Assembly (NCBI GenBank): GCA_963744145.1
Contig: CAVUSO010000001.1
Location: 4,480,001-4,544,000, forward strand
Source: an uncultured cyanobacterium
GTDB lineage: Bacteria > Cyanobacteriota > Cyanobacteriia > Cyanobacteriales > CAWUOF01
Length of the DNA: 64,000 nt
Direction of reading: 5' to 3'
Numbering within the stretch: the first letter of the stretch is position 1; every line of letters starts with the position of its first letter. This document shows, piece by piece, positions 9,385 through 60,504 of the stretch. A program made the position numbers and the translations under genes. The notes under the pieces were generated by a model that saw nothing but the letters and a program-made list of their open reading frames with translations, was not told the DNA's origin and searched no databases.

Positions 9385-10941
9385 ATGGCTCGCCAATCTA
9401 GCCCTACTAAGACCCCATCATTTATTGTTGAGATACCCTTGGTGGTATCCGACAAAGATGCTGGGGTTTTAAATTCTAGATTTGAAGCGGGTCGGCAACT
9501 TTATAACGCCTGCTTGGGGGAGGCAATGCGGCGACTAAAGCTGGTTAAACAATCTAAGAAATATCAAGAAGCCAGAAAACTTAAAAAGGGTAAGGCCAGA
9601 ACAGCAGCATTTAAAGAAGCAAATCAGGCATATAAATATAGTGAATATGATTTGCATTCTTATTGCACGACTGTTCGTAATTCTTGGTTGAGCGACCATA
9701 TTGACGCAAACACCGCTCAAAAATTAGCGACCCGTGCATTCAATGCCTCTATTCGAGTAGCTTTTGGCAAAGCTAAGAAAGTCAGGTTTAAAGGAAAAAA
9801 TCAACTTGATTCCTTAGAAGGCAAGACAAATAAGACGGGGATTAGATGGGTAAAAGAAACCTTGGTTTGGGGAAACATCCAACTCAAGCCATACTTAACA
9901 ACCTATGACCCTGTAATAACTCATGGCCTAAACAGTCGAGTAAAATACGTTAGATTGGTGCGCCGTCGGATTAATGGCAAGGTTTTCTACTACGCTCAAT
10001 TAGTTGCTGAAGGTAAACCATTTCAGAAGCCTAAGAACAAAATTGGTAATGGTTCTGTTGGTCTAGATATTGGACCCTCGACTATTGCCATTGTCGGGGA
10101 TGATTCAGCCAAATTAACCCTGTTCGCATCAGAATTGCAGTCGAAGGATAAGGAAATTCGCCGACTACAAAGAAAGATGGAACGGTCTAGAAGAGCGAAT
10201 AATCCCCACAACTACAACCCGGATTTTGTTGACAAAAAAGGAAAACAGAAAAAAGGAACTGTTAAAAAAGGATGTAGAGGGTGGAATAATTCCAAAACCT
10301 ATCTTCAGACCAGAACATCTAAGGCTAATCTAGAACGAGAATTAGCGGCTCATCGAAAGTCGTTACATGGAAAATTAGTTAATGAAATTCTTCGTCAAGG
10401 TAATACTGTTAAATTAGAAAAACTTTCCTACAAAGCTTTTCAGAAATTATTCGGCAAGTCGGTAGGAAAACGCGCACCAGGGGAATTTGTATCGCATCTA
10501 AAGCGCAGGGCTGAAAGTGCTGGTGCTAAGGTGATTGAATTCTCAACTTATTCAACTAAACTGTCGCAAACTTGTCAATGTGGCAACGTCAAGAAAAAAC
10601 AGCTTTCCGAAAGAATCCATCAATGTGATTGTGGAATCTTTTGTCAGAGAGATTTATATTCGGCGTTTCTTGCCAAATTTGTTGATAATGAACTGCTTCA
10701 AGCGAATCAAGCTATTGATGCTTGGTTAGGTTCGGAACCGATCCTGTATGCGGCTTGGAGACAGGTCACCCAAACTAACTTGCAAGTAGAAGGACGAGTT
10801 TCTTCTTCCTTTGGGAAATTCCCAGAGTCAGAGCGAGTCGCAGCGAAAGTTCAAAATTCTGATGCTAAGGTCTTGGATGTTGTACCAAATTGGGAGAGCC
10901 AAAAAGAGGCATTATTGCATTTTGAACCCCCGTCCCTTTAG
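9385..10941 (+). CDS. tnpB: RNA-guided endonuclease TnpB
   Basis: RuvC motifs GLDIG / LEKL / QRDLYSA and Zn finger CQCG...CDCG. The ORF ends inside the right-end hairpin. Confidence 0.92.
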   Translation: MARQSSPTKTPSFIVEIPLVVSDKDAGVLNSRFEAGRQLYNACLGEAMRRLKLVKQSKKYQEARKLKKGKARTAAFKEANQAYKYSEYDLHSYCTTVRNSWLSDHIDANTAQKLATRAFNASIRVAFGKAKKVRFKGKNQLDSLEGKTNKTGIRWVKETLVWGNIQLKPYLTTYDPVITHGLNSRVKYVRLVRRRINGKVFYYAQLVAEGKPFQKPKNKIGNGSVGLDIGPSTIAIVGDDSAKLTLFASELQSKDKEIRRLQRKMERSRRANNPHNYNPDFVDKKGKQKKGTVKKGCRGWNNSKTYLQTRTSKANLERELAAHRKSLHGKLVNEILRQGNTVKLEKLSYKAFQKLFGKSVGKRAPGEFVSHLKRRAESAGAKVIEFSTYSTKLSQTCQCGNVKKKQLSERIHQCDCGIFCQRDLYSAFLAKFVDNELLQANQAIDAWLGSEPILYAAWRQVTQTNLQVEGRVSSSFGKFPESERVAAKVQNSDAKVLDVVPNWESQKEALLHFEPPSL

Positions 10942-11836: not shown

Positions 11837-12778
11837 ATGCGAATTTTGATTATGGGTGGTACGCGATTCATTGGTGTTTACTTAACTAAAATTTTAGTGG
11901 CAAAAGGTCATGAGGTAGTTCTTTTTAATCGTGGTAATAAACCAGCTCCTGTTCCGGGAGTAAAAGTAATTCATGGCGATCGCACGCTCCCAGACCAACT
12001 GCAAGAAAAACTCAACCAAGAACACTTTGATGCGATCTTTGACAATAATGGTCGAGAACTAAGCGATACTAAACCCCTTGCTGATCTATTTAAAGGTCGG
12101 GTGCAACATTTCATTTATATGAGTTCGGCTGGTGTTTATCTCAAATCCGATCAATTACCCCATCAAGAAGGTGATCCGATCGACCCTAAAAGTCGTCATA
12201 AAGGTAAACATGATACGGAAAGTTACCTGATTGAGCAGGGATTACCTTGGACATCAATCCGTCCTACTTATATTTATGGTCCACAAAACTATAATGAATT
12301 GGAAGCTTGGTTTTTCGCTCGCTTAATCCGTAATCGTCCCATCCCGATTCCTGGTAATGGATTACATATCACCCAACTAGGGCATTGTCAAGATTTAGCG
12401 GAAGCAATGACCGCAGTGCTAGGTAATCAAAAAGCGATCTCTCAGGTCTATAATATATCAGGCGATCGCTATGTGACCTTTGATGGTTTAGCCCGAGCTT
12501 GTGCGATCGCAATGGGTAAATCACCAGATGATGTTCAGCTCGTCCATTATGATCCGAAAAAATTTGATTTCGGTCAACGTAAAGGTTTCCCCATCCGAGT
12601 TCAGCACTTTTTTGCCACCATTCATAAAGCGATCGATGATCTCGACTGGAAACCAAAATTTGATCTGATTTCTGGACTAAAAGACTCTTTTGAAAATGAC
12701 TATTTAGCTAACCAACAAGACCAAGCAAAGATCGATTTTTCTGTAGATGATGAAATTTTGCAGGTCATGTCAAAGTAG
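11837..12778 (+). CDS. NAD-dependent epimerase/dehydratase family protein (CSP41b-like)
   Basis: MRILIMGGTRFIG Rossmann motif and RPTYIYGP. Confidence 0.85.
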   Translation: MRILIMGGTRFIGVYLTKILVAKGHEVVLFNRGNKPAPVPGVKVIHGDRTLPDQLQEKLNQEHFDAIFDNNGRELSDTKPLADLFKGRVQHFIYMSSAGVYLKSDQLPHQEGDPIDPKSRHKGKHDTESYLIEQGLPWTSIRPTYIYGPQNYNELEAWFFARLIRNRPIPIPGNGLHITQLGHCQDLAEAMTAVLGNQKAISQVYNISGDRYVTFDGLARACAIAMGKSPDDVQLVHYDPKKFDFGQRKGFPIRVQHFFATIHKAIDDLDWKPKFDLISGLKDSFENDYLANQQDQAKIDFSVDDEILQVMSK

Positions 12779-13414
12779 ATGCAAAAAAGAATTAGCTAAA
12801 ATCGCAACTTGAGTGCGATCGCGCAAATTCAAACGATTCAAAATATTAGTCACATGATTTTTGACAGTTCCTTCGGAAATATAAAGTTTTTGGGCAATTT
12901 CCCGGTTACTCGAACCAGCAGCAATTAAGCGCAAAACTTCCTTTTCCCGTGGCGTCAATTCAGCCCAACTAGGGGGTAAACTTACTGGTGGACTGGAAGA
13001 AGGCACTTTAGCAATCAGCTTATCAACTAATCCCGGTCCTAATTGAGTATACCCTTTATCAACAGCTCGAATTGCCGCTGCTAATTCTTCTGAGGGAGTA
13101 TCTTTAAGTAAATATCCGATCGCTCCAAAGCGTAGTGCTTGAGCCACATATTGATCATCATCAAAAGTCGTCAAAACTAAAATTTTTACATTGGGAAAAC
13201 GCTGACAAATCTCCTGAGTTGCTGCGACCCCATCCATAATGGGCATCCGAATGTCCATCAAAACTACATCTGGTTGTAAAGTTTCTACCAGTTGAATGGC
13301 GATTTGTCCATTATCCGCTTCACCGATAATTTGCAAATCTGTTTCTAGTTCCAATAAAGCTTTTAAACCTTGGCGAATTAAACTTTGGTCATCAACTAAT
13401 AAGATTTTAATCAT
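12770..13414 (-). CDS. NarL/LuxR-family response regulator
   Basis: REC domain (LLVDD, LMDIRMP) plus LuxR HTH (LTPREKEVL...TVKNHV). Confidence 0.92.
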   Translation of the reverse strand: MIKILLVDDQSLIRQGLKALLELETDLQIIGEADNGQIAIQLVETLQPDVVLMDIRMPIMDGVAATQEICQRFPNVKILVLTTFDDDQYVAQALRFGAIGYLLKDTPSEELAAAIRAVDKGYTQLGPGLVDKLIAKVPSSSPPVSLPPSWAELTPREKEVLRLIAAGSSNREIAQKLYISEGTVKNHVTNILNRLNLRDRTQVAILANSFLHLL

Positions 13415-50751: not shown

Positions 50752-50885
50752 TCTTTAATTAGTCACGGTAGATATACAGTGACTAATTATTTGACGTGAT
50801 GCCAAATTGTTGTCACCGATGAAAACTATTGATTTCTCTATATTCTAGCTGTTTTCCTTGATTAAAGATCGCTAGCCGTTAGTGA

Positions 50886-51014
50886 CCTGAAGTAATATCT
50901 AACCAAATCTCAACCTCTGATCCTAGCGAGAGCAATCTGATTGTCTCGGAACTTCCAGAGGAGACAAGACCAAAGTTGGAAGTGATTCAAAGTTTGCTGG
51001 AACCATGCGATCGC
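50886..51014 (+). pseudogene. tnsB: tnsB N-terminal fragment
   Basis: Translates ..NLIVSELPEETRPKLEVIQSLLEPCDR, matching the recalled V-K TnsB N-terminus (KLEVIQSLLEPCDR). Ends at a HIP1 site. Confidence 0.88.
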
Positions 51015-51144
51015 CAGGGTGGTGGGGGGTTGAGGTTGAAAGCTTCTGGGAAATGCTGCCGCCAATGGGGGAGGGGATGAAGTGCGAACCGATCGCTGTC
51101 GGACAAAATTTGGAGAATTAGCTGCATATCAAAAATCAGCTTAA
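51007..51144 (+). pseudogene. tniQ: tniQ fragments (frameshifted and internally deleted)
   Basis: AIARVVG(+1)VEVESFWEMLPPMGEGMKCEPI joined at CGATCGC to DRCRTKFGELAAYQKSA*; compare V-K TniQ ..AIASVV..MLPPAGVGMQHEPI.. and ..RCRMPFAEMAKLQK. Confidence 0.82.
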
Positions 51145-51238
51145 TGCAGGGCGGAGGAAGAAGAATGTCCTCATTGTTTTCTGCCTTTTGTGAAGATAGT
51201 CAAACGTCAGAGTTAGTCTGGCGATTGCTTAGTAATAA

Positions 51239-54200
51239 TTAATTATTTGATATTTTTTGAGAGAGCCGCTTATAGACTTCTGAAACTAACCAATCAGATA
51301 CCAACTTTTTAAAATTGATGTCATTCATATAACGAGCGAAAATATCTTCGTTTTGATCTACACGCTCAATAAATAAAGACTCAACAATTTGATTAAATAG
51401 CAAGGTAAATTTATCGGGTGAGTTGACTTGTGCTGCTTGTTGCAATTCTTCGCTATTTGCCGCCGCTTCAACAATTTGATCAAAGAAAAGTTGATCGGCT
51501 TGGTTAAAGTCAGTTCCAAAACGACTATTTAACAGATCAATTAGCTGTGATAGTTTAACAGAACTTTCACGCAAAATGCCTGTTCCTAATGCTTTCTGGC
51601 CATCTAAGGGAGATTTTTCCCCTTTTTCTAAATGAATTGAACCTTCACTAATTTTCTGAAGGCGATAATATTCAAGCTGAATATCACTATCAAAATCGTA
51701 TCGATCTTCATTAGAATGACGCAATAATTTAGGAGATAAATGACGTAAAAAAATATAAAGTTGTTCTAAATCAGAATCTTGATAAGGAATAATTTGACTC
51801 AAAAAATTATAGAGATTGCGAAAAGCTGTTAATTTTCTCCGCCAGAGTTCTGCTTCTTCAATATTCTGCTCGTATAAAGCTCGAAATCTATCAACGGCTG
51901 GATCTAATACAGCATTCATTCCTTGATGATCGGCAGGACTTTGACGCGGTTTGGGCTTAAAATAAATCGCGCAAAACCGCTTAATTTCTTCACTTAAATA
52001 GATTCCTGATGCGTCTAATTGACTTTTTAACTGGTAAAGTTGTGTGGGCTCGGCTTCCTGTCCTAACTCTGCCCCTTCATAAAACTGCTGAAATGCTTCT
52101 CGAATCTCCTCCGGTTTATTGACAAAATCAAGGATAAAGGTATCTTCTTTTTGAGGGTGAGTGCGATTCAGACGAGAGAGGGTTTGCACTGCTTGAATAC
52201 CCGATAAACGCTTATCAACATACATCGTATGTAGCAAAGGTTGATCGAAACCTGTTTGATATTTCTCGGCAACTAACAACACTTGATAGTCATTAGTAGC
52301 AAATTTTTCTGGTAATTCCTTCTCCCTAATTCCCTGATTCATTTCTTCTTCTGTATAGGTTTTATCGGAAATTTTATCGTCAGTAACAATTCCTGAAAAC
52401 GCGACTAACGTTTTGATGGGATAGCCTTTTTCTTTAATATATTTGTCAAAACTTTGTTTGTAACGAACTGCTTCCAGACGAGAACCCGTTACCACCATTG
52501 CTTTTGCCTTACCACCGATTTTATGCCGTGTAAAACTATTAAAATGTTCCACCATAATTTCAGTCTTTTGGGCAATATTATGGGGGTGGAGACGCATAAA
52601 ACGAGCTAAAGCTTTCGCGGCTTTTTTGCGCTCAACATGGGGATCATCTGAACAGTCTTTAATCAGTTTGAAGTAAGCTTTATAGGTGGTGTAGTGCTTC
52701 AATACGTCCATGATGAAGATTTCTTCAATCGCTTGACGCATGGTATAACGATGGAAGGGTTCACCTTTGCGACCAAAGAATTTTAGAGTTTTATGTTTGG
52801 GTGTAGCAGTAAAAGCAAAGAAACTGAGATTATCCTGGTGAGAGCGTTTTGCCATGCTCAGGAACATTTCTTCTAAATGTTCTAATCCTTCTTCTTCTGC
52901 CATTTCACGGGCTTTTTGATGCAATGCTTCACCACCGAGTACCCCTTTCAACTCTGTAGCACTATCCCCAGATTGAGAACTGTGAGCCTCATCAATAATC
53001 ACCGCACAGCAACGAGTTGGTAATAGTCCGCGTCCCTGTTCGTTCCGTTCTTCAGCAAGTTTAAGTAATTGTCGCGTAACAAAAGGAAATTTTTGTAGGG
53101 TTGTAATAATAATAGGAACAGCACTTTCTAGTGCTTGCGCTAACTGCTTAGAATCTTTATCTATTTTTTGAATAACGCCTTGACGGTGTTCAAATTGATA
53201 GATTGTGTCTTGTAATTGTTGATCGAGAATGCGGCGATCGCTAATCACAATTACACTATCAAAAATCCGTTGATTTTGCTCGTTATGCAGGGAAGATAAA
53301 CGATGAGTTAACCAACCAATGGTATTACTTTTGCCACTCCCTGCGGAATGTTCGATTAGATAATTCTGTCCGACTCCTTCGAGTTGGGTCGCATCAATTA
53401 ATTGACGGACGGCTTGTAATTGATGGTAACGGGGAAAGATCATGCTCTCTTTTTTGAATTTTCGCCCTTGATCATCATATTTTTGGTCTATTTGTAAATG
53501 GAGAAACTGGGCTAGGAGTTCTAGTAAACTATCTCGTTGTAAAACTTCTTCCCAAAAATAGGCGGTGCGATAGGTTCGTTCTTCGGGGTCGGGAGGGTTG
53601 CCAGCACCGTTATTGTAACCTTTATTAAAGGGTAAAAAATGGGTGGCTTTTCCGGCAAGTCTGGTAGTCATCCAGACTTCTTCGGTATCAACGGTAAAAT
53701 GAACTAATGTTCGCCGTTTAAACTCAAAAATAACCTCGTGAGGATCACGATCTTGGCGATATTGTTGTTTACCTTGTTCTACGGTTTGTCTGGTTAGGGG
53801 ATTTTTGAGTTCAATGGTTACAAGGGGAATACCATTAAGACTGAGGGTAATATCAAGTTCATTATGATTGCGATCGCTATATTGGAGTTGACGGGTAATT
53901 CCTAATTGATTGGCATTATAGCGGGTTTCTAGGTCAGTATTGAGGCTATGGGCGGCTTTGAAATAGGCTATACGCAGGGTACGTCCATAGCATTTGAAAC
54001 CGTGACGCAGGGTGTGGAGTGATCCGTAGGTATCCATCCATTTACACAGATCGGTAATGACTTGATTTGGGGTGTTTTCTCCTTGTAATGCTGCTAATTT
54101 TGCCCATTCTTTGGGTTGGGTTTGGCGGATAAAGTTGATGGCTATCTCAGGAAAAATGGCATGAGTTTTGTCAAATTTGGTTATGGTTTTAAGATAGCCG

Positions 54201-54265
54201 TGAGCTAGAAGGTAATCTTCTATGACTTGCTCAAAGGCAGTTTCGGTATGGCTTGCTATTGTCAT
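51239..54265 (-). CDS. hsdR: Type I restriction endonuclease subunit R
   Basis: LDITLSLNGIPLVTIELKN nuclease motif, HSAGSGKS, IIDEAH, FTATP and QTGFD. Confidence 0.93.
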   Translation of the reverse strand: MTIASHTETAFEQVIEDYLLAHGYLKTITKFDKTHAIFPEIAINFIRQTQPKEWAKLAALQGENTPNQVITDLCKWMDTYGSLHTLRHGFKCYGRTLRIAYFKAAHSLNTDLETRYNANQLGITRQLQYSDRNHNELDITLSLNGIPLVTIELKNPLTRQTVEQGKQQYRQDRDPHEVIFEFKRRTLVHFTVDTEEVWMTTRLAGKATHFLPFNKGYNNGAGNPPDPEERTYRTAYFWEEVLQRDSLLELLAQFLHLQIDQKYDDQGRKFKKESMIFPRYHQLQAVRQLIDATQLEGVGQNYLIEHSAGSGKSNTIGWLTHRLSSLHNEQNQRIFDSVIVISDRRILDQQLQDTIYQFEHRQGVIQKIDKDSKQLAQALESAVPIIITTLQKFPFVTRQLLKLAEERNEQGRGLLPTRCCAVIIDEAHSSQSGDSATELKGVLGGEALHQKAREMAEEEGLEHLEEMFLSMAKRSHQDNLSFFAFTATPKHKTLKFFGRKGEPFHRYTMRQAIEEIFIMDVLKHYTTYKAYFKLIKDCSDDPHVERKKAAKALARFMRLHPHNIAQKTEIMVEHFNSFTRHKIGGKAKAMVVTGSRLEAVRYKQSFDKYIKEKGYPIKTLVAFSGIVTDDKISDKTYTEEEMNQGIREKELPEKFATNDYQVLLVAEKYQTGFDQPLLHTMYVDKRLSGIQAVQTLSRLNRTHPQKEDTFILDFVNKPEEIREAFQQFYEGAELGQEAEPTQLYQLKSQLDASGIYLSEEIKRFCAIYFKPKPRQSPADHQGMNAVLDPAVDRFRALYEQNIEEAELWRRKLTAFRNLYNFLSQIIPYQDSDLEQLYIFLRHLSPKLLRHSNEDRYDFDSDIQLEYYRLQKISEGSIHLEKGEKSPLDGQKALGTGILRESSVKLSQLIDLLNSRFGTDFNQADQLFFDQIVEAAANSEELQQAAQVNSPDKFTLLFNQIVESLFIERVDQNEDIFARYMNDINFKKLVSDWLVSEVYKRLSQKISNN

Positions 54266-54952
54266 TTATTTTTTCCTTTTTTGTGCTTTAATAGCCTCAA
54301 GTCTTGCAATATGTTTTTCTAATGCTTGAATCAAAACAAAACAAAATTCATCTAATTTGTCTCGTTGTTGAGTCTTTAAATCTCTAAGTCGTTTTCGTGC
54401 ATCTTTAAGCGGAAGATTATTTTCCTTCCCAATAGTTCCTTGAATTGCTGCTTTGCGTTTATCTTCAAGCTCACTATAATCAAGACCGAGTTTTGTAATC
54501 GTCATTGCTGCTGCCTGATCTCCAGCCTGATTTTCAATTTGACCTCGTAATTTAAAAATAAAGCGAGATTCACAGCTTTGATTTAAAGGAGAAACAAATA
54601 AATGCTGTTCATCATTCCCAGACCAATGATCTTTTTTATGAGCGCCATAAGGAACTTTATACTTGGTATTAGGTCCAGGATAGCAAGCTACAATATTACT
54701 GTATAAAACAGTTTCACCAGCAGTACAGTGTGTTTGAGGTTTGAGGTGTTCGATATGACATTTTTGTTCATCAATGCTCAAACCTGTGTATGCACATAAC
54801 CAGCCTTGTTCTTCTAGTAAAGAACGAGTCACTGCTTGAACCACATCACTGTTTTTTCGCATCAAATCATAACCAAAATTAATGTCGTTAGAATAACGAG
54901 ATCGCCATTCCTTTAACTGCTCAGGTTCATTCCTCTTCTGAATCCACTTCAT
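54266..54952 (-). CDS. HNH endonuclease (PtuB / TIGR02646-like)
   Basis: LLEEQGWLCAYT..HIEHLKPQ..YSNIVAC; overlaps the ATPase stop codon. Confidence 0.8.
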   Translation of the reverse strand: MKWIQKRNEPEQLKEWRSRYSNDINFGYDLMRKNSDVVQAVTRSLLEEQGWLCAYTGLSIDEQKCHIEHLKPQTHCTAGETVLYSNIVACYPGPNTKYKVPYGAHKKDHWSGNDEQHLFVSPLNQSCESRFIFKLRGQIENQAGDQAAAMTITKLGLDYSELEDKRKAAIQGTIGKENNLPLKDARKRLRDLKTQQRDKLDEFCFVLIQALEKHIARLEAIKAQKRKK

Positions 54953-56255
54953 CTGCTAATGCCTCTAGGTTATTAATGCTGGCTTCAAAACGGGAAGTTT
55001 CATCGTCACTTCCGATCATACGCTTTAAAGTGTCAAGTTGATTTCTGGCTAACTCAAGATTGCCTTCTTCTAGTGAATCTTCTATAGAATTGATTTGATC
55101 TTGAGATTTGCGGTTGCGGGGTTCAGTTTCCATTAAATGTTTAAGAATCCAGCTAGAATCTAACCCAAAGGATTGAAGACCTTCTTGAATTACAATAACT
55201 CGGTTGTCTTCTTTTTGAAGTAAAATCAAACCACTGGGGTGAACTTCTCCAATGATTTGTGGTGAATGGGTAGTTGCAATAAATTGGCAATTTGGGAATG
55301 TCTGAGTCAGTTTTTCTACGATTGTTCGTTGCCAGCGTGGATGCAAATGTAGATCGAGTTCATCAATTAACACAACTGCTTTCCCTTGCTCTAATGGGTT
55401 CTCTAATTTAGGATTTGCTTGCGAAAGTCGTCGTGCCAAGTCAAGAATTAATGCTAAGATACCTCGTTCACCGTCTGAAAACAAACGTATATCAAGCTTC
55501 ATTCCTTCTTTATTTAAAAGTAATGTTGTTGTAGGTTCTCTAATAACCTCAAGTCCAGTACAGGTATCAATAAAGTTGGTTACTGCATTGTTTAATACGC
55601 TTAGATGTTTTTCTGCTAATTTTACACCTTCTTTCACCAGTGCTTCTTGAACTAACAACCACTCGGCAAATTCACGAAGGCGTAGTTCGCGATGAGTTAG
55701 TGCATCAGCAAAAGCAGCAGCTTGATTTCCTGCACTACTCTGTTTGCTAGGAGTCGCCATGTTAGCTAATGAACGACGGGTAGAAAAATAGAGTGCTAGT
55801 GGTTGTTGTTCAGCTGCTTTTAGATACTTTAGAATATCTTTTTGCTTCATGCCTTTAAGCTCTTGTGGAAGATGCTTGTCTAAAATCTCTCGAAGACGTT
55901 TTAGTTCAGGTAAATTACCATCGTCGTTTTCGATAGGTTCACTACTATGTTTAATGTTTTTCTCTCGCCATCTTCTGCTTTCGTACTCTAAACTAACACC
56001 AGCTATATTACATACAAGTGAAGTATAAAGCCAATCACGTTCAACAGTAATATCTTTGACATCAAAGTCAAGACGCTTACTTTTAGAAACGCCAACAATG
56101 GGTAGAAGTTGTGAGAGCATAATCCTTATTGCGTCAAGTACAGTGGATTTACCCACACCATTGATGCCAACAAGTAGGTTCATCCCAGGCTGAAACTCAA
56201 ATTCTGCCTGTTCAAAAGCTCGAAAATTAGTAAGTGTAAGGCGGTTAATCTGCAT
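54927..56255 (-). CDS. ABC/AAA ATPase (PtuA-like)
   Basis: Walker A GINGVGKS, signature FSDGE, Walker B/D-loop VLIDELDLHLHPRWQ and H-loop TTHSP. Confidence 0.85.
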   Translation of the reverse strand: MQINRLTLTNFRAFEQAEFEFQPGMNLLVGINGVGKSTVLDAIRIMLSQLLPIVGVSKSKRLDFDVKDITVERDWLYTSLVCNIAGVSLEYESRRWREKNIKHSSEPIENDDGNLPELKRLREILDKHLPQELKGMKQKDILKYLKAAEQQPLALYFSTRRSLANMATPSKQSSAGNQAAAFADALTHRELRLREFAEWLLVQEALVKEGVKLAEKHLSVLNNAVTNFIDTCTGLEVIREPTTTLLLNKEGMKLDIRLFSDGERGILALILDLARRLSQANPKLENPLEQGKAVVLIDELDLHLHPRWQRTIVEKLTQTFPNCQFIATTHSPQIIGEVHPSGLILLQKEDNRVIVIQEGLQSFGLDSSWILKHLMETEPRNRKSQDQINSIEDSLEEGNLELARNQLDTLKRMIGSDDETSRFEASINNLEALADEVDSEEE

Positions 56256-56257
56256 AG

Positions 56258-57529
56258 TTACTCCTTGATTTTAAGTTGTCCGGTGACTGCTGCTGTAATT
56301 AATGATGTTCGACGTTCTTCTAAGAGTTTAATTGTTTTGTCTGTAGCTATTTTTAAAGAATCCAATTTGAAAACTTCATTTTTAATATGAGACACGATAG
56401 AATACTGTTCATTCAAGGGAGGCAATATAATTATTAAGCCACTAATAATTTCTGTATTTAAGTTTTCCATTGTCGTCCCAACAGACATCATAGACAAACT
56501 TTTACCCACAAAAGTATTTAACACCAGTAAAACTAAATATTCAGAATCGATAATTTCTAAATTAGGTCGCACTCTCAGACTACCTGAACCACACAACCAT
56601 CCAACTTCTTGTTGAGTTACCACTCCACATCGTCCAATCTCTCCTCGACGGGCAAAAACGATATCGCCACTCTCTAATTTATGAATTGACAAACGTTTTA
56701 CTGTTTCTTGATCTACAGCTACTTGATAGTCTGGAACAATTTTACCATCAACTAAATGTACAGGATTAATAACTGGAAGACCATCATCAACATAGTCTTC
56801 TGCATGGAGTTGTGTTCCAAAAGGGCCTGTTTGAAGTGATTTACTTACTGTTTTAAGTCTTTGAATTGACCAATGCTCAGGAATTTCTTTCATCCACTCA
56901 ACACCAGAATCTCGCATCGGAACATCAGGATTTAACCCACGAGTTACCGCATGGGTAATGAGGGTACGACGTTTTTCATCCAATAATTCTAGTAATCGTT
57001 TTTTGGCTTTAATTAGCTCATCTATTTTGCCTGTTTTTTGATCAAGATAATTTGCGATCGCTTCCTGAATGGAAAGTGAGTGTAAATTAATCGGAAAATC
57101 GGTAAATTTTTTTCGACTGAGTTCAATTTGATTAGTTGCTCCTTCAGAACATAAAACAGTTAGCGTGTCTTGCTGAATACTAAGGTAATAAAAAAGATAT
57201 TTTGGATAAAATCGTTGCAGTGTATCTCGAATAACAGTAACGTGTCCATCTGCAAATGTAGGTTTTTTAGGTTCTATATCAACAATTGCTACTCGGCCAA
57301 GAGTTCCTGTACCTGTAGAGTTAATTAGAATATCATCTTTGTATATCCAAGATGTAATTTTTTCTATTTCATTAGGATCTTGATATTTAGTTTTTAATAA
57401 ATTTAAACCATCAGGTGAAACACAGGCTTGATTAACAACGTGAATATCGGAATATTCAGTATAAACTGGAGCATCACCACGAGAAATAAAATCAGCAATA
57501 TATTTTAGTTTAAGTATTAAATTATTCAC
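56258..57529 (-). CDS. hsdS: Type I RM specificity subunit S
   Basis: Two TRDs separated by LITHAVTRGL..MRDSGVEW..IPEHW; ends LITAAVTGQ. Confidence 0.92.
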   Translation of the reverse strand: MNNLILKLKYIADFISRGDAPVYTEYSDIHVVNQACVSPDGLNLLKTKYQDPNEIEKITSWIYKDDILINSTGTGTLGRVAIVDIEPKKPTFADGHVTVIRDTLQRFYPKYLFYYLSIQQDTLTVLCSEGATNQIELSRKKFTDFPINLHSLSIQEAIANYLDQKTGKIDELIKAKKRLLELLDEKRRTLITHAVTRGLNPDVPMRDSGVEWMKEIPEHWSIQRLKTVSKSLQTGPFGTQLHAEDYVDDGLPVINPVHLVDGKIVPDYQVAVDQETVKRLSIHKLESGDIVFARRGEIGRCGVVTQQEVGWLCGSGSLRVRPNLEIIDSEYLVLLVLNTFVGKSLSMMSVGTTMENLNTEIISGLIIILPPLNEQYSIVSHIKNEVFKLDSLKIATDKTIKLLEERRTSLITAAVTGQLKIKE

Positions 57530-59553
57530 TTTGTCACCTCCTGCAATAACCTAATAATCTCCTCTTCCATCTGTTTAATATCTGCATCAATTTCAGCTAA
57601 TGGACGAGGGGGCGTATATTTGTAAAAATAGCGATTAAAATTAATCTCATAAGCAATTCTAATATTTTCTCCATCTGCCCAAGCATCAGCAACATGAGGT
57701 TCAATTTCTTCAAGAAAATAACGGATAATTTCATCTTGTAAATTAATATTTTCAAAGTCTCTTAACTTCGAGTCTGCTTCATACATCCGTTCTATTTTTT
57801 TACCAGGAACAGGAAACCATCCCCAAACACGAGAGTTAGGTTCACCTGTGACCTTACGTTCCTTCAAAATAACAGGTTTTGCCTCTATTTCTCGTTCTGT
57901 AAATACATCTTTAAATAGCTTTTGTTCAACTTTTTTCCAACGACTACTACGCTGCTTTAATAAATCCGTCATTAACCGATCAAATTCACTCCAATCAGAA
58001 CGAGGTTCGCGTCCCAATTCTCGATCGATTGCTTGAACATCATCTAATAAGTGGGGAACGGCATCCAGAAAACGACTTTTGCGATCGAGATTCATTTGAT
58101 AGAGTAAACGTAGGGGTCGTTCAATGGGAACGCGGTGATAACCAAAATCCTCATTATCAAAAATCTTGCTGGTTTCACTTTCGACAAATTTCCCATATTC
58201 ACGCACCACAATAGCAATATCTTCTTCACCCATATAACGGCGTTTATCTCCTAAACTACGTCGCATCGGTTGCCAACAGTGACGAGCATCAATCAGTTGA
58301 ATTTTGCCTTTACGGTGTTTCTGTTTCCGGTTGGTAACAATCCAAATATAAGTACCAATTCCTGTGTTATAAAACATCTGTTCAGGTAGAGCAATAATCG
58401 CTTCTAACCAATCACTTTCGATAATCCATTTGCGAATTTCACTTTCACCACTCCCAGCACCTCCTGTAAATAAAGGTGAACCATTAAATACAATGGCAAG
58501 ACGAGAACCATTTTTATGATTTTCAGGTTGATAGAGTTCAAATTTCCTAATTTGATGCTGTAAAAACAACAGCGAACCATCATTAACTCTAGGCAACCCT
58601 GCCCCAAAACGTCCGGCAAAACCTAGCTTTTCATGTTCTCGTTTCACTTCCTTTTGCTGTCTCTTCCAGTCCACACCAAAAGGGGGATTTGCTAGAAAAT
58701 ACTCAAAGGTTTCATCAGGGTATTTATCATCAATTAAAGAGTCGCCAAACTGAATAGAACTTTTTTCATTTTCCTTCATTAATAAGTCTGAAGCGGCAAT
58801 GGCATAAGCACGGGGATTAAAATCTTGACCAAAAACCCAGAGTTGTGCTTCTTTATTATTTTCTCGTAAATAATTTTGAGCTTCTGCTAACATTCCCCCC
58901 GTACCACAAGTGGGGTCAAGGAGTTTGCAAATTACGGATTTAGTCAGAATATCATCATCAGGATCGAATAAAATATCAACCATTAAGCGGATGACTTCTC
59001 GTGGTGTAAAGTGGTCCCCTGCGGTTTCGTTGGCAGTTTCATTAAAACGACGAATTAAGTCTTCAAAAACTGACCCCATTGCAATGTTATCTACTCGATC
59101 GGGGTGTAAATCTACATCGCAAAACTTCGAGATGACTAGATAGAGGATGTTCGCCTCATTCATCTTTTCAATTTCTGCGGTAAACTCGAAACGTTCAAAG
59201 ATTTCGCAGATATTTTTTGAGAAACTATTGATATAGTTCACTAAATGTTTATCAATATTATTCGGATCGCCTTTGAGCTTTTCAAAGGTGAGTTCAGAAC
59301 GATTGTAAAAGCGTTGTCCTGCTGCTTTATTAAGCATAGAATCGAGAGCATCATCTTTTAATCGATCTTTGTATTGCTGATATTTAGTTAAAACGTCCTG
59401 TTTAGTGGGTGCAAGTACGCAGTCAAAACGGCGTAACACCGTCATTGGTAGCATAACTCGTTCATATTGCGGAGGTCGATAGGGACCACGTAAAAGATCG
59501 GCTATTTGCCAGATAAAATTAGAAAGTTGGTGATGATCAGCCATTTGTTGCAA
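57526..59553 (-). CDS. hsdM: Type I RM methyltransferase subunit M
   Basis: Motifs FIWQIADLLRG, HFTPREV, DPTCGTGG and NPPF. Confidence 0.95.
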   Translation of the reverse strand: MQQMADHHQLSNFIWQIADLLRGPYRPPQYERVMLPMTVLRRFDCVLAPTKQDVLTKYQQYKDRLKDDALDSMLNKAAGQRFYNRSELTFEKLKGDPNNIDKHLVNYINSFSKNICEIFERFEFTAEIEKMNEANILYLVISKFCDVDLHPDRVDNIAMGSVFEDLIRRFNETANETAGDHFTPREVIRLMVDILFDPDDDILTKSVICKLLDPTCGTGGMLAEAQNYLRENNKEAQLWVFGQDFNPRAYAIAASDLLMKENEKSSIQFGDSLIDDKYPDETFEYFLANPPFGVDWKRQQKEVKREHEKLGFAGRFGAGLPRVNDGSLLFLQHQIRKFELYQPENHKNGSRLAIVFNGSPLFTGGAGSGESEIRKWIIESDWLEAIIALPEQMFYNTGIGTYIWIVTNRKQKHRKGKIQLIDARHCWQPMRRSLGDKRRYMGEEDIAIVVREYGKFVESETSKIFDNEDFGYHRVPIERPLRLLYQMNLDRKSRFLDAVPHLLDDVQAIDRELGREPRSDWSEFDRLMTDLLKQRSSRWKKVEQKLFKDVFTEREIEAKPVILKERKVTGEPNSRVWGWFPVPGKKIERMYEADSKLRDFENINLQDEIIRYFLEEIEPHVADAWADGENIRIAYEINFNRYFYKYTPPRPLAEIDADIKQMEEEIIRLLQEVTK

Positions 59554-59675
59554 ATCCTTCGCTCAATTCACCCAAAGTGGGAGTCTCTATCGAATTTTCC
59601 TGTTTTGCTGTAATTGTTTGATTATGATTATTCTGAAAATTAATTCCGTCTGTACTTTGAGTCCTATCTACAAAA

Positions 59676-60134
59676 TTAAACTATGCGATCGCCTGTGGTA
59701 GCAAAACTGCTGAGATTATCGCGTAAGCGTTGATGAATGCGATCGCTCCAAAACGGTACAACAGACAAACCCTGATTAATTGTTTGCAAGGCTAAATCGC
59801 TGTTAAAATCGACTAAACACCGCTGTTTTGAATCCATTAACAACATAAAACGCTTCATTTGCTGTTCTGATAACGATTGCCCAAATAACCATGACTCATT
59901 GGTTTTGAGAATTTCCAGAATTTCCCGACAAACCTCAAAACTCAACCCGATAGAGAGTAAATATTCCATCACCGTCAGCCCCAATAGGTCAGCTACAGAA
60001 TAATAAACATTGCGACCCTTACCAATCGGGTTCACTGTGGGCACAATAACCCCTTTCTCGCGCCAATACTGCAATTGCCGCCGAGAGCATCCGGTAATCT
60101 GTGCCGCTTCTGTACTGGTGTAGAAATTATCCAT
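59676..60134 (-). CDS. cvkR: MerR-family regulator, CvkR-like (CAST V-K repressor)
   Basis: MerR HTH (TGCSRRQLQYWREKG..GRNVYYS), divergent from the cas12k start. Confidence 0.8.
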   Translation of the reverse strand: MDNFYTSTEAAQITGCSRRQLQYWREKGVIVPTVNPIGKGRNVYYSVADLLGLTVMEYLLSIGLSFEVCREILEILKTNESWLFGQSLSEQQMKRFMLLMDSKQRCLVDFNSDLALQTINQGLSVVPFWSDRIHQRLRDNLSSFATTGDRIV

Positions 60135-60181
60135 AGATTTTTATAATACTTAACTTCGTGCAAAATAATTTGAGAATTTTA

Positions 60182-60215
60182 AACACATAGTGTGTTCTTG
60201 TGCTACTATATTTTG
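60182..60215 (+). promoter_or_regulatory. CvkR-box-like palindrome plus -10 element of a probably leaderless cas12k promoter
   Basis: AACACATAGTGTGTT (60182-60196) differs at one position from the recalled CvkR motif AnnACATnATGTnnT. TACTAT at 60204-60209 lies 6 nt before the ATG at 60216. Confidence 0.65.
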
Positions 60216-60266
60216 ATGAGTCAAATAACTATTCAATGCCGTTTAATTGCCAAAGAATCCAGCCAA
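60216..60266 (+). pseudogene. cas12k: cas12k 5' remnant (about 16 codons)
   Basis: MSQITIQCRLIAKES matches the typical Cas12k N-terminus and is fused directly to a CRISPR repeat. Confidence 0.85.
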
Positions 60267-60303
60267 GTTTCAACCACCATTTCAGCTAGGGGTGGTTTAA
60301 AAG
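60267..60303 (+). CRISPR. Single degenerate 37-nt type V-K CRISPR repeat
   Basis: gtttcaaccaccatttcagctaggggtggtttaaaag: 37 nt, aaccacc/ggtggtt stem, end resembling GTTGAAAG. There is only one copy, so this is not an array. Confidence 0.7.
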
Positions 60304-60433
60304 TCTATAAGGATATGGGCGTAGTCGTCACTGGCAACTAAACGAGAATAATTTGTCCCAAAGACATTTAACTTGTCTCGACGACAGTAATTTGTCCCCG
60401 ACGACATTTAATTAGTCACTGTACAGAACCTAA

Positions 60434-60504
60434 AGCGGGCAGCGGGAATCGAACCCGCATCTTTAGCTTGGAAGGCTAAGGTTTTACCACTAAACCATGC
60501 CCGC
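60434..60504 (-). tRNA. tRNA-Gly(TCC)
   Basis: gcgggcatggtttagtggtaaaaccttagcctTCCaagctaaagatgcgggttcgattcccgctgcccgct. Confidence 0.96.

Follow-up and report, generated by a model that had tools for sequence, protein, structure and literature searches.

The transposition operon of a decayed type V-K CRISPR-associated transposon (CAST) was probably cut down by short-homology (illegitimate) recombination seeded at pre-existing, codon-conserved copies of the octamer HIP1, GCGATCGC; we put the probability of this reading at roughly 0.6. The element occupies positions ~50775-60426 of the analysed sequence, a stretch of 64,000 nucleotides from an uncultured cyanobacterium (hereafter, the window), and lies beside a tRNA-Gly gene. 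Two deletions in its tns operon meet at HIP1 or at seven of its eight bases. A small hand-curated survey of related loci supports an over-representation of HIP1 at the decay junctions of CAST operons.

Structure of the decayed element

Type V-K CASTs carry the genes tnsB-tnsC-tniQ, cas12k, a tracrRNA, a short array and a MerR-type regulator, and are found close to tRNA genes. The element in the window (Table 1) is similar to them in its ends, the gene order, the remnants of tnsB, tniQ and cas12k, the single repeat, the MerR gene and the tRNA-Gly neighbour. Unlike them, it has no tnsC, its tnsB, tniQ and cas12k are cut to 43, ~45 and 17 codons respectively, and the bases preceding the terminus, TG at the right end, are TA at the left end. 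Judged from these features, the locus is predicted to be a dead, non-functional type V-K CAST.

Tn7-like terminal inverted repeats (50775-50789 and 60412-60425) bound the element. Remnants of tnsB and tniQ were identified near the left end. The complete absence of tnsC fits a deletion rather than membership of another transposon family. Near the right end, cas12k and the CRISPR repeat are present as remnants only; the remainder of cas12k is gone, and so are the tracrRNA region and the array. The element contains at least three large deletions, two in the transposition operon (junctions 1 and 2) and one leading from cas12k to the lone repeat (junction 3). Neither HIP1 nor GATC is present at junction 3.

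The tRNA-Gly gene, 8 bp from the right end, is likely the attachment site of the CAST. An Rfam search returned two tRNAs and nothing else. The segment following the lone repeat (60304-60335) shows, by eye, partial similarity to the 5' part of the tRNA-Gly gene, and it might be a homing spacer against this neighbour. At the other end, the 15 nt at 50756-50770 form a near-palindrome together with the left-end terminus (to 50789). They may be all that is left of an earlier element inserted in tandem next to this tRNA gene.

The start region of tnsB (50862-50885) is disrupted by two in-frame stop codons and ~12 extra bases that include GATCGC: the window reads LKIASR, two stops and PEVISNQ, compared with MKIDTEVISNQ in relatives. 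A type I restriction-modification system makes up the cargo, and the Septu genes ptuA and ptuB lie within it, between hsdR and hsdS. Dead as a transposon, the element amounts to a defence island. The MerR-family gene is a putative regulator that may resemble the CvkR repressor of V-K CASTs.

Table 1. Features of the decayed CAST and its flanks, in window coordinates
Feature	Position	Strand	Evidence and remarks
Right-end-like 15 nt	50756..50770		Directly left of the left end; inverted repeat with 50775-50789, 93% complementary; resembles right-end terminus 60412-60425
CAST left end	50775..50830	+	Terminus TACAGTGACTAATTA (50775-50789); terminal inverted repeat with right end; inner boundary approximate
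tnsB N-terminal remnant	50886..51014	+	43 codons, ends EPCDR; 93% identity to TnsB P0001; tblastn to relatives
Junction 1, HIP1	51007..51014		Last tnsB codons C-D-R overlap first tniQ-frame codons A-I-A
tniQ middle fragment	51015..51094	+	~Residues 70-97; +1 frameshift (extra G in run 51024-51029); tblastn to TniQ; 84-88% identity to P0006-P0012
Junction 2, CGATCGC	51090..51096		7/8 HIP1 bases; joins tniQ ..EPI to DRC; out of frame
tniQ C-terminal fragment	51091..51144	+	DRCRTKFGELAAYQKSA and stop codon; 16/17 residues as in P0011 C-terminus; tblastn matches
Cargo HsdR, type I restriction subunit	51239..54265	-	Pfam HSDR_N, ResIII, T1R_D3-like
Cargo Septu defence pair	54266..56255	-	PtuB 54266-54952 (PADLOC 1.8e-68), PtuA 54927-56255 (PADLOC 1e-122); Pfam AAA_15/AAA_21
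Cargo HsdS and HsdM	56258..59553	-	HsdS specificity subunit 56258-57529, HsdM methylase 57526-59553; Pfam Methylase_S, N6_Mtase, HsdM_N
MerR-family regulator	59676..60134	-	Divergent from cas12k start (60216); Pfam MerR_1 2.6e-16
cas12k remnant	60216..60266	+	17 N-terminal codons, MSQITIQCRLIAKESSQ; matches N-termini of 11 cas12k ORFs in related loci
Single V-K-type CRISPR repeat	60267..60303	+	Fused directly to cas12k remnant; pattern match; similar repeats in L025, L047, L056
CAST right end	60330..60425	+	Terminus ..TTAGTCACTGTACA (60412-60425); inner boundary approximate
tRNA-Gly (UCC)	60434..60504	-	ARAGORN; Rfam tRNA 75.7 bits; 3' end faces right end

Junctions in the transposition operon

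Few words known from bacterial genomes are as over-represented as HIP1. The window has a G+C content of 40% and contains 65 copies of HIP1 in 64 kb (~1 per kb); no other octamer comes close to this number. CGATCG is present 110 times and GATC 378 times. At one HIP1 per kb, a random breakpoint would touch a copy with a chance of only ~1-2%.

The frame entering junction 1 is frame 3, ..PKLEVIQSLLEPCDR / ..SELPEETRPKLEVIQSLLEPCDR, and its last codons lie on HIP1. The 43-aa piece that it encodes matches the N-terminus of P0001, a 578-aa TnsB (Mu-type transposase, Pfam Mu-transpos_C). Frame 1 leaves the octamer as AIARVVGG followed by a stop codon. The extra G shifts the continuation into frame 2, GVEVESFWEMLPPMGEGMKCEPI, which has tblastn matches to mid-TniQ in 55 of the 80 related loci; the seven most similar TniQ proteins, P0006-P0012, are those listed in Table 1. 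Beyond junction 2, frame 1 is open from 51091 to the natural end of tniQ. Compared with the reference locus L011, junction 1 has lost ~2.6 kb, comprising tnsB from codon ~50 onwards, the whole of tnsC and ~70 codons of tniQ, and junction 2 has lost ~0.16 kb of tniQ. A single intact HIP1 is kept at junction 1; at junction 2 the octamer lacks one base, CGATCGC being preceded by C.

The initial annotation had proposed that tnsB, ending in EPCDR, and tniQ, resuming at AIA, share one HIP1 at 51007-51014, and the sequence, the reading frames and the protein matches bear this out. The comparison with L011 agrees with its statement that most of tnsB, all of tnsC and the start of tniQ were removed. The second junction that it placed within tniQ, EPI/DRC on CGATCGC at 51090-51096, is upheld by the sequence and by the match to the C-terminus of P0011.

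Donor sites in intact relatives

The DNA of relatives was taken from 80 loci found in one genome-contig scan, in which TnsB is at most ~80% (about 70-80%) identical to P0001. The closest intact relatives (P0001-P0003 and P0006-P0012) are known as proteins alone (TnsB N-terminus 93%, TniQ 84-88% identical), and the ancestral donor DNA was judged by proxy. No near-identical intact element was found by distant blastn of 50770-51245 against plasmids, and the tblastn matches of P0001 against plasmids were all below 60% identity.

The left donor of junction 1 (donor A, tnsB C-D-R) is a HIP1 in 42 of 71 relatives; among the 28 that have the residues C-D-R, 18 carry it. Several relatives share 15 identical bases with the window, GAACCATGCGATCGC. 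By this comparison the HIP1 of donor A appears clearly ancestral. The right donor (donor B) is the tniQ triplet Ala-Leu-Ala that is aligned with A-I-A of the window. It is a HIP1 in none of 57 loci: all of them encode Ala/x-Leu(Val)-Ala, with octamers that differ from HIP1 by two to five mismatches. The seven closest proteins have A-L-A or A-M-A, and isoleucine is found in no relative. The isoleucine of the window may simply be the ATC of the tnsB HIP1. Depending on the ancestral tniQ codons, the two donors share between 2 and 8 nt.

At junction 2 the left donor (donor C, tniQ Glu-Pro-Ile-Arg) contains CGATCG in none of 57 loci and CGAT in 28 of them, and the residues E-P-I-R are incompatible with encoding a full HIP1. 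The right donor (donor D, tniQ C-D-R-C) is a HIP1 of the TGCGATCGCTG type in both relatives that have these residues, L003 and L064; the closest TniQ proteins have RCDRC. Donors C and D share CGAT or CGATC, as seen from CCGAT(T/C)CG and (G)CGATCGC. As in microhomology deletions, few bases are shared by the donors and these are present once at the junction.

Thus each junction of the window probably sits in one HIP1 that predates the deletion. It is more likely that the partner site shares a part of the octamer, so that the events in the window would be one-sided with respect to HIP1. The initial annotation had described both deletions as HIP1-to-HIP1. One donor of each junction agrees with this description (A and D) and the partner does not (B and C). 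HIP1 on both sides of the breakpoint is contradicted by the relatives at junction 2 and finds no support among them at junction 1.

Another candidate for the right donor of junction 1 was the HIP1 encoding Gly-Ala-Ile-Ala-Arg-Trp of TniQ, which is present in 29 of 52 relatives. It would call for a further deletion of 60 bp and is less parsimonious. This reading is also disfavoured because only 5 nt could derive from that site and because the closest proteins have AVVARW or AAVARW.

Alternatively, the HIP1 at junction 1 may have been completed after the deletion, by a HIP1-spreading substitution acting on a near-HIP1 junction. HIP1 is reported to spread by nucleotide substitution (Robinson 1997, as summarised in PMC13756078), and a mutational ratchet has been put forward by Elhai (PMC5861425). 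There are also sites where HIP1 was created at Ala-Ile-Ala and other loci differ, e.g. the TniQ C-termini of L005 and L010. However, the part of the octamer contributed by tnsB is ancestral in most relatives, so that little would have been left to complete, and few other changes are seen in a pseudogene of this age. We consider a later completion very improbable.

Breakpoints in other decayed operons

Related decayed operons were surveyed by tblastn with the L005 proteins and by blastn against 45 intact operons, covering internal deletions, truncations and orphan tniQ 3' fragments. Hand curation of 69 automatically flagged alignment ends gave 35 operon-side breakpoints in 27 events, the grouping into events being a matter of judgement. 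The junctions of the window itself are left out of these counts. We dropped the ends of short conserved islands in distant pairs (e.g. L003, L012, L054, L056, L063, L073, L074), ends at variable gene termini (e.g. L025, L045, L028, L046), and IS or MITE insertions (L030 twice, L077, L028, L063). One of the L030 insertions abuts HIP1 and is thus uncounted. The 5' truncation of tnsB in L050, a candidate break at HIP1, has homology running 6-7 bp further upstream and was assigned to the 7-bp class only.

HIP1 was found within 3 bp of six of the 35 breakpoints (five of the 27 events), whereas 0.45 were expected, an excess of ~13-fold. Within 7 bp it was found at nine breakpoints, against 0.70 expected; the other 26 are farther away. 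The expectation is derived from random positions in the 45 reference operons, 1.28% of which fall within 3 bp and 2.00% within 7 bp. The binomial P values are 5e-6 (3 bp) and 2e-8 (7 bp), or 2.4e-4 and 7e-6 when the null is doubled. Inside tniQ, where HIP1 is denser, six cases were observed among 14 breakpoints against 0.42 expected. At the level of events, five were observed against 0.69 expected (Poisson P 7.5e-4; 0.014 with the null doubled), and a test of the events that was made over-conservative on purpose did not reach significance (P=0.2).

The survey corresponds to the enrichment test proposed in the initial annotation, and it supports an over-representation of HIP1 at the decay junctions, with the reservation of the over-conservative test. 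The stronger statement of the initial annotation, that HIP1-directed recombination drives the decay, goes too far, as 26 breakpoints lie more than 7 bp from HIP1. Together with junction 3, they count against the HIP1 explanation.

Close intact references allowed eight deletions in primary operons to be resolved (two in L041, two in L049 and one each in L047, L051, L052 and L062). Junction 2 of L041 is a 212-bp internal deletion of tniQ and is unambiguously HIP1-to-HIP1. Its donors in the intact L036, GGT[GCGATCGC]ACG on the left and GAT[GCGATCGC]CAC on the right, share 9 bp, and L041 retains one copy. The remaining seven share at most 5 bp and have no HIP1 in the shared bases; the right breakpoint of L049 junction 2 is 6 bp from a HIP1. 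In L026, a HIP1 located just after an upstream gene is joined to the Gly-Ala-Ile-Ala-Arg-Trp HIP1 of tniQ. The left HIP1 is intact in L039 and L033, where it is followed by different DNA, and the right one is intact in L022. L041 junction 2 and L026 are thus proven HIP1-to-HIP1 junctions.

Many Nostoc-group CAST loci contain orphan tniQ 3' fragments 1.5-7 kb downstream of the intact operon (L018, L022, L023, L026, L033 with two, L039, L040, L067, L071, L017, L019, L064). Presumably, these are relics of earlier elements. Several of them share a start point at about tniQ codon 120. Besides the Gly-Ala-Ile-Ala-Arg-Trp site, tniQ has a conserved HIP1 at Gly-Cys-Asp-Arg-His, present in 20 of 52 relatives. 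The fragments of the groups L018/L033/L039 and L022/L033, and those of L026 and L064, start at HIP1 or within 3 bp of it. In the group L040/L067/L071 the start lies 5-6 bp away from the HIP1 position, and L017, L019 and L023 start away from the conserved HIP1 sites.

HIP1 and plain microhomology

Among direct-repeat pairs of at least 8 bp in the 45 intact operons, 161 of 5273 (3.1%) are HIP1-HIP1 pairs; among pairs of at least 6 bp the share is 0.3%. The only resolved junctions with at least 8 bp in common are L041 junction 2 and L026, both at HIP1. This is suggestive of HIP1 being favoured beyond its length and copy number, in a sample of two of which L026 is not intra-operon.

One possibility is that two of the three deletions in the window fell by coincidence on HIP1-like words, these being the commonest repeats in the genome, and that ordinary microhomology did the rest. 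CGATCG and GATC are indeed abundant in the window, junction 2 requires just 4-5 shared bases, and junction 3 has no HIP1. In the relatives, seven of the nine resolved two-sided junctions share at most 5 bp and lack HIP1. However, a random breakpoint touches HIP1 with a probability of only ~1.3%, the survey shows the excess given above, and HIP1 accounts for a small share of the repeat pairs of either length. Coincidence is an unlikely explanation.

Insertions at HIP1 sites

In six Nostoc-group loci (L035, L036, L040, L041, L048, L059) a 21-bp insert interrupts the tnsB HIP1 between AGCGAT and CGC, at about locus position 10090 (~5905 in L059). In three others (L028, L029, L045) a 24-bp insert splits the Gly-Ala-Ile-Ala-Arg-Trp HIP1 of tniQ. 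The inserts add in-frame residues, e.g. AYGGLRQ and YGGALPIA. They resemble SDR5 mini-elements in size, position and host group. SDR5 small dispersed repeats (Elhai et al. 2008) insert solely within HIP1, according to the accounts in PMC4390886 and PMC5861425. The Nostoc-group relatives are similar to these cases in carrying short inserts at HIP1 sites of tnsB and tniQ, whereas the SDR5 cases are insertions and those of the window are deletions. The inserts mark HIP1 as a site of DNA transactions.

Larger insertions were also observed. An insertion of ~1.65 kb in L030 (13715 and 15371), with terminal inverted repeats and a 10-bp target duplication, GCTTGGAGGT, abuts the Gly-Ala-Ile-Ala-Arg-Trp HIP1 of tniQ; a second one of ~1 kb in tnsC of the same locus (12185-13190) is away from HIP1. 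In L002, tnsB is interrupted at ~11238 by a sequence with a CAST-terminus-like end, ..AATTAATTACA, and a 100-bp insert with a similar motif lies between tnsB and tnsC of L028 (11728-11839). The L002 and L028 inserts may be miniature elements derived from CAST ends.

A rival explanation is targeted breakage: a host nuclease would cut HIP1 or its core CGATCG, and the ends would be rejoined. The nuclease could be a restriction enzyme recognising this sequence, or it could be whatever activity inserts SDR5 elements. Religation of two cut HIP1 sites would yield a HIP1-to-HIP1 junction, and one cut followed by chance microhomology would yield a one-sided junction. One-sided HIP1 junctions are common, as seen in both junctions of the window and in the orphan fragments of L018/L033/L039, L022/L033 and L064, and the SDR5-like inserts interrupt exactly these HIP1 sites. 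HIP1 at the resolved junctions exceeds its share of 3% among repeat pairs of at least 8 bp. Directed cutting at HIP1 is invoked in the account of Elhai (2015; PMC4390886), which ties HIP1 to site-specific recombination. However, no nuclease of this kind was identified here, the restriction system of the cargo is of type I, and the products would be indistinguishable from those of slippage. We regard targeted breakage as less probable, yet as a serious rival.

Proposed mechanism

We prefer short-homology recombination seeded at HIP1. Being frequent and located at the same conserved codon triplets in many CAST genes, HIP1 provides ready-made identical 8-bp direct repeats. In the window, two deletions would each have had one breakpoint inside a pre-existing in-frame HIP1, at C-D-R of tnsB and at C-D-R near the end of tniQ. 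The second breakpoint would in each case have been at a site sharing only a part of the octamer, with HIP1 or a HIP1-like word serving as the joining sequence. HIP1 would be the cause of both deletions, and the molecular route may have been slippage or microhomology-mediated end joining rather than targeted cutting.

HIP1 sites may moreover be intrinsically more prone to breaking or joining than other 8-mers. A tentative possibility is that HIP1 is a preferred deletion breakpoint in cyanobacterial DNA beyond the effects of length and copy number, and that a HIP1-directed nicking, cutting or recombination-stimulating activity erodes CASTs from their own conserved codons. If so, dead CAST operons would form a natural deletion trap in which this activity could be measured and the function of HIP1 addressed.

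The HIP1 sites of V-K CASTs occupy fixed codon positions and dead copies break there far above chance, so that an inexpensive comparison could be extended to thousands of genomes. Natural deletion scars directly record the effect of HIP1 on DNA in vivo. Breakage linked to HIP1 also bears on the survival time of CASTs in cyanobacterial hosts.

Comparison with known systems

The function of HIP1 has been debated for ~30 years, and the proposals include a role in chromosome structure, a mark of DNA uptake or 'self', and a signal for recombination similar to Chi. A 2024 preprint proposes such a Chi-like effect on recombination. A full-text search returned no paper mentioning HIP1 together with Cas12k, and among the papers listed on the palindrome and deletions in cyanobacteria no title concerned CASTs. 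Within the limits of the literature searched, no publication linking HIP1 to the decay of CASTs was found.

Short direct repeats reportedly undergo deletion via replication slippage or microhomology-mediated joining (Bzymek and Lovett 2001). Our junctions are similar in that one copy of the repeat is kept and the interval is lost. In contrast, the generic model predicts no preference for HIP1 over other 8-mers, and the small sample considered here suggests one.

The assay of Robinson et al. reportedly has direct repeats of HIP1 as substrates of excision, too. It was reportedly performed on plasmids, whereas here natural junctions were compared with other repeats of at least 8 bp.

The closest precedent is the smtB metallothionein locus of Synechococcus PCC 6301. 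As related in PMC13756078, Gupta et al. (1993) described a 352-bp deletion in smtB that is flanked by HIP1, and proposed illegitimate recombination between both copies. L041 junction 2 and L026 belong to precisely this type, a single HIP1 remaining from two. The window differs, firstly, in that only one HIP1 donor per junction is shown or inferred and, secondly, in that the decay of a mobile element is neutral, whereas the loss of the smtB repressor was selected. The window is thus one more instance of a HIP1-linked deletion, a phenomenon in print since 1993. The new point is modest: dead CAST operons show a measurable excess of HIP1 at their breakpoints.
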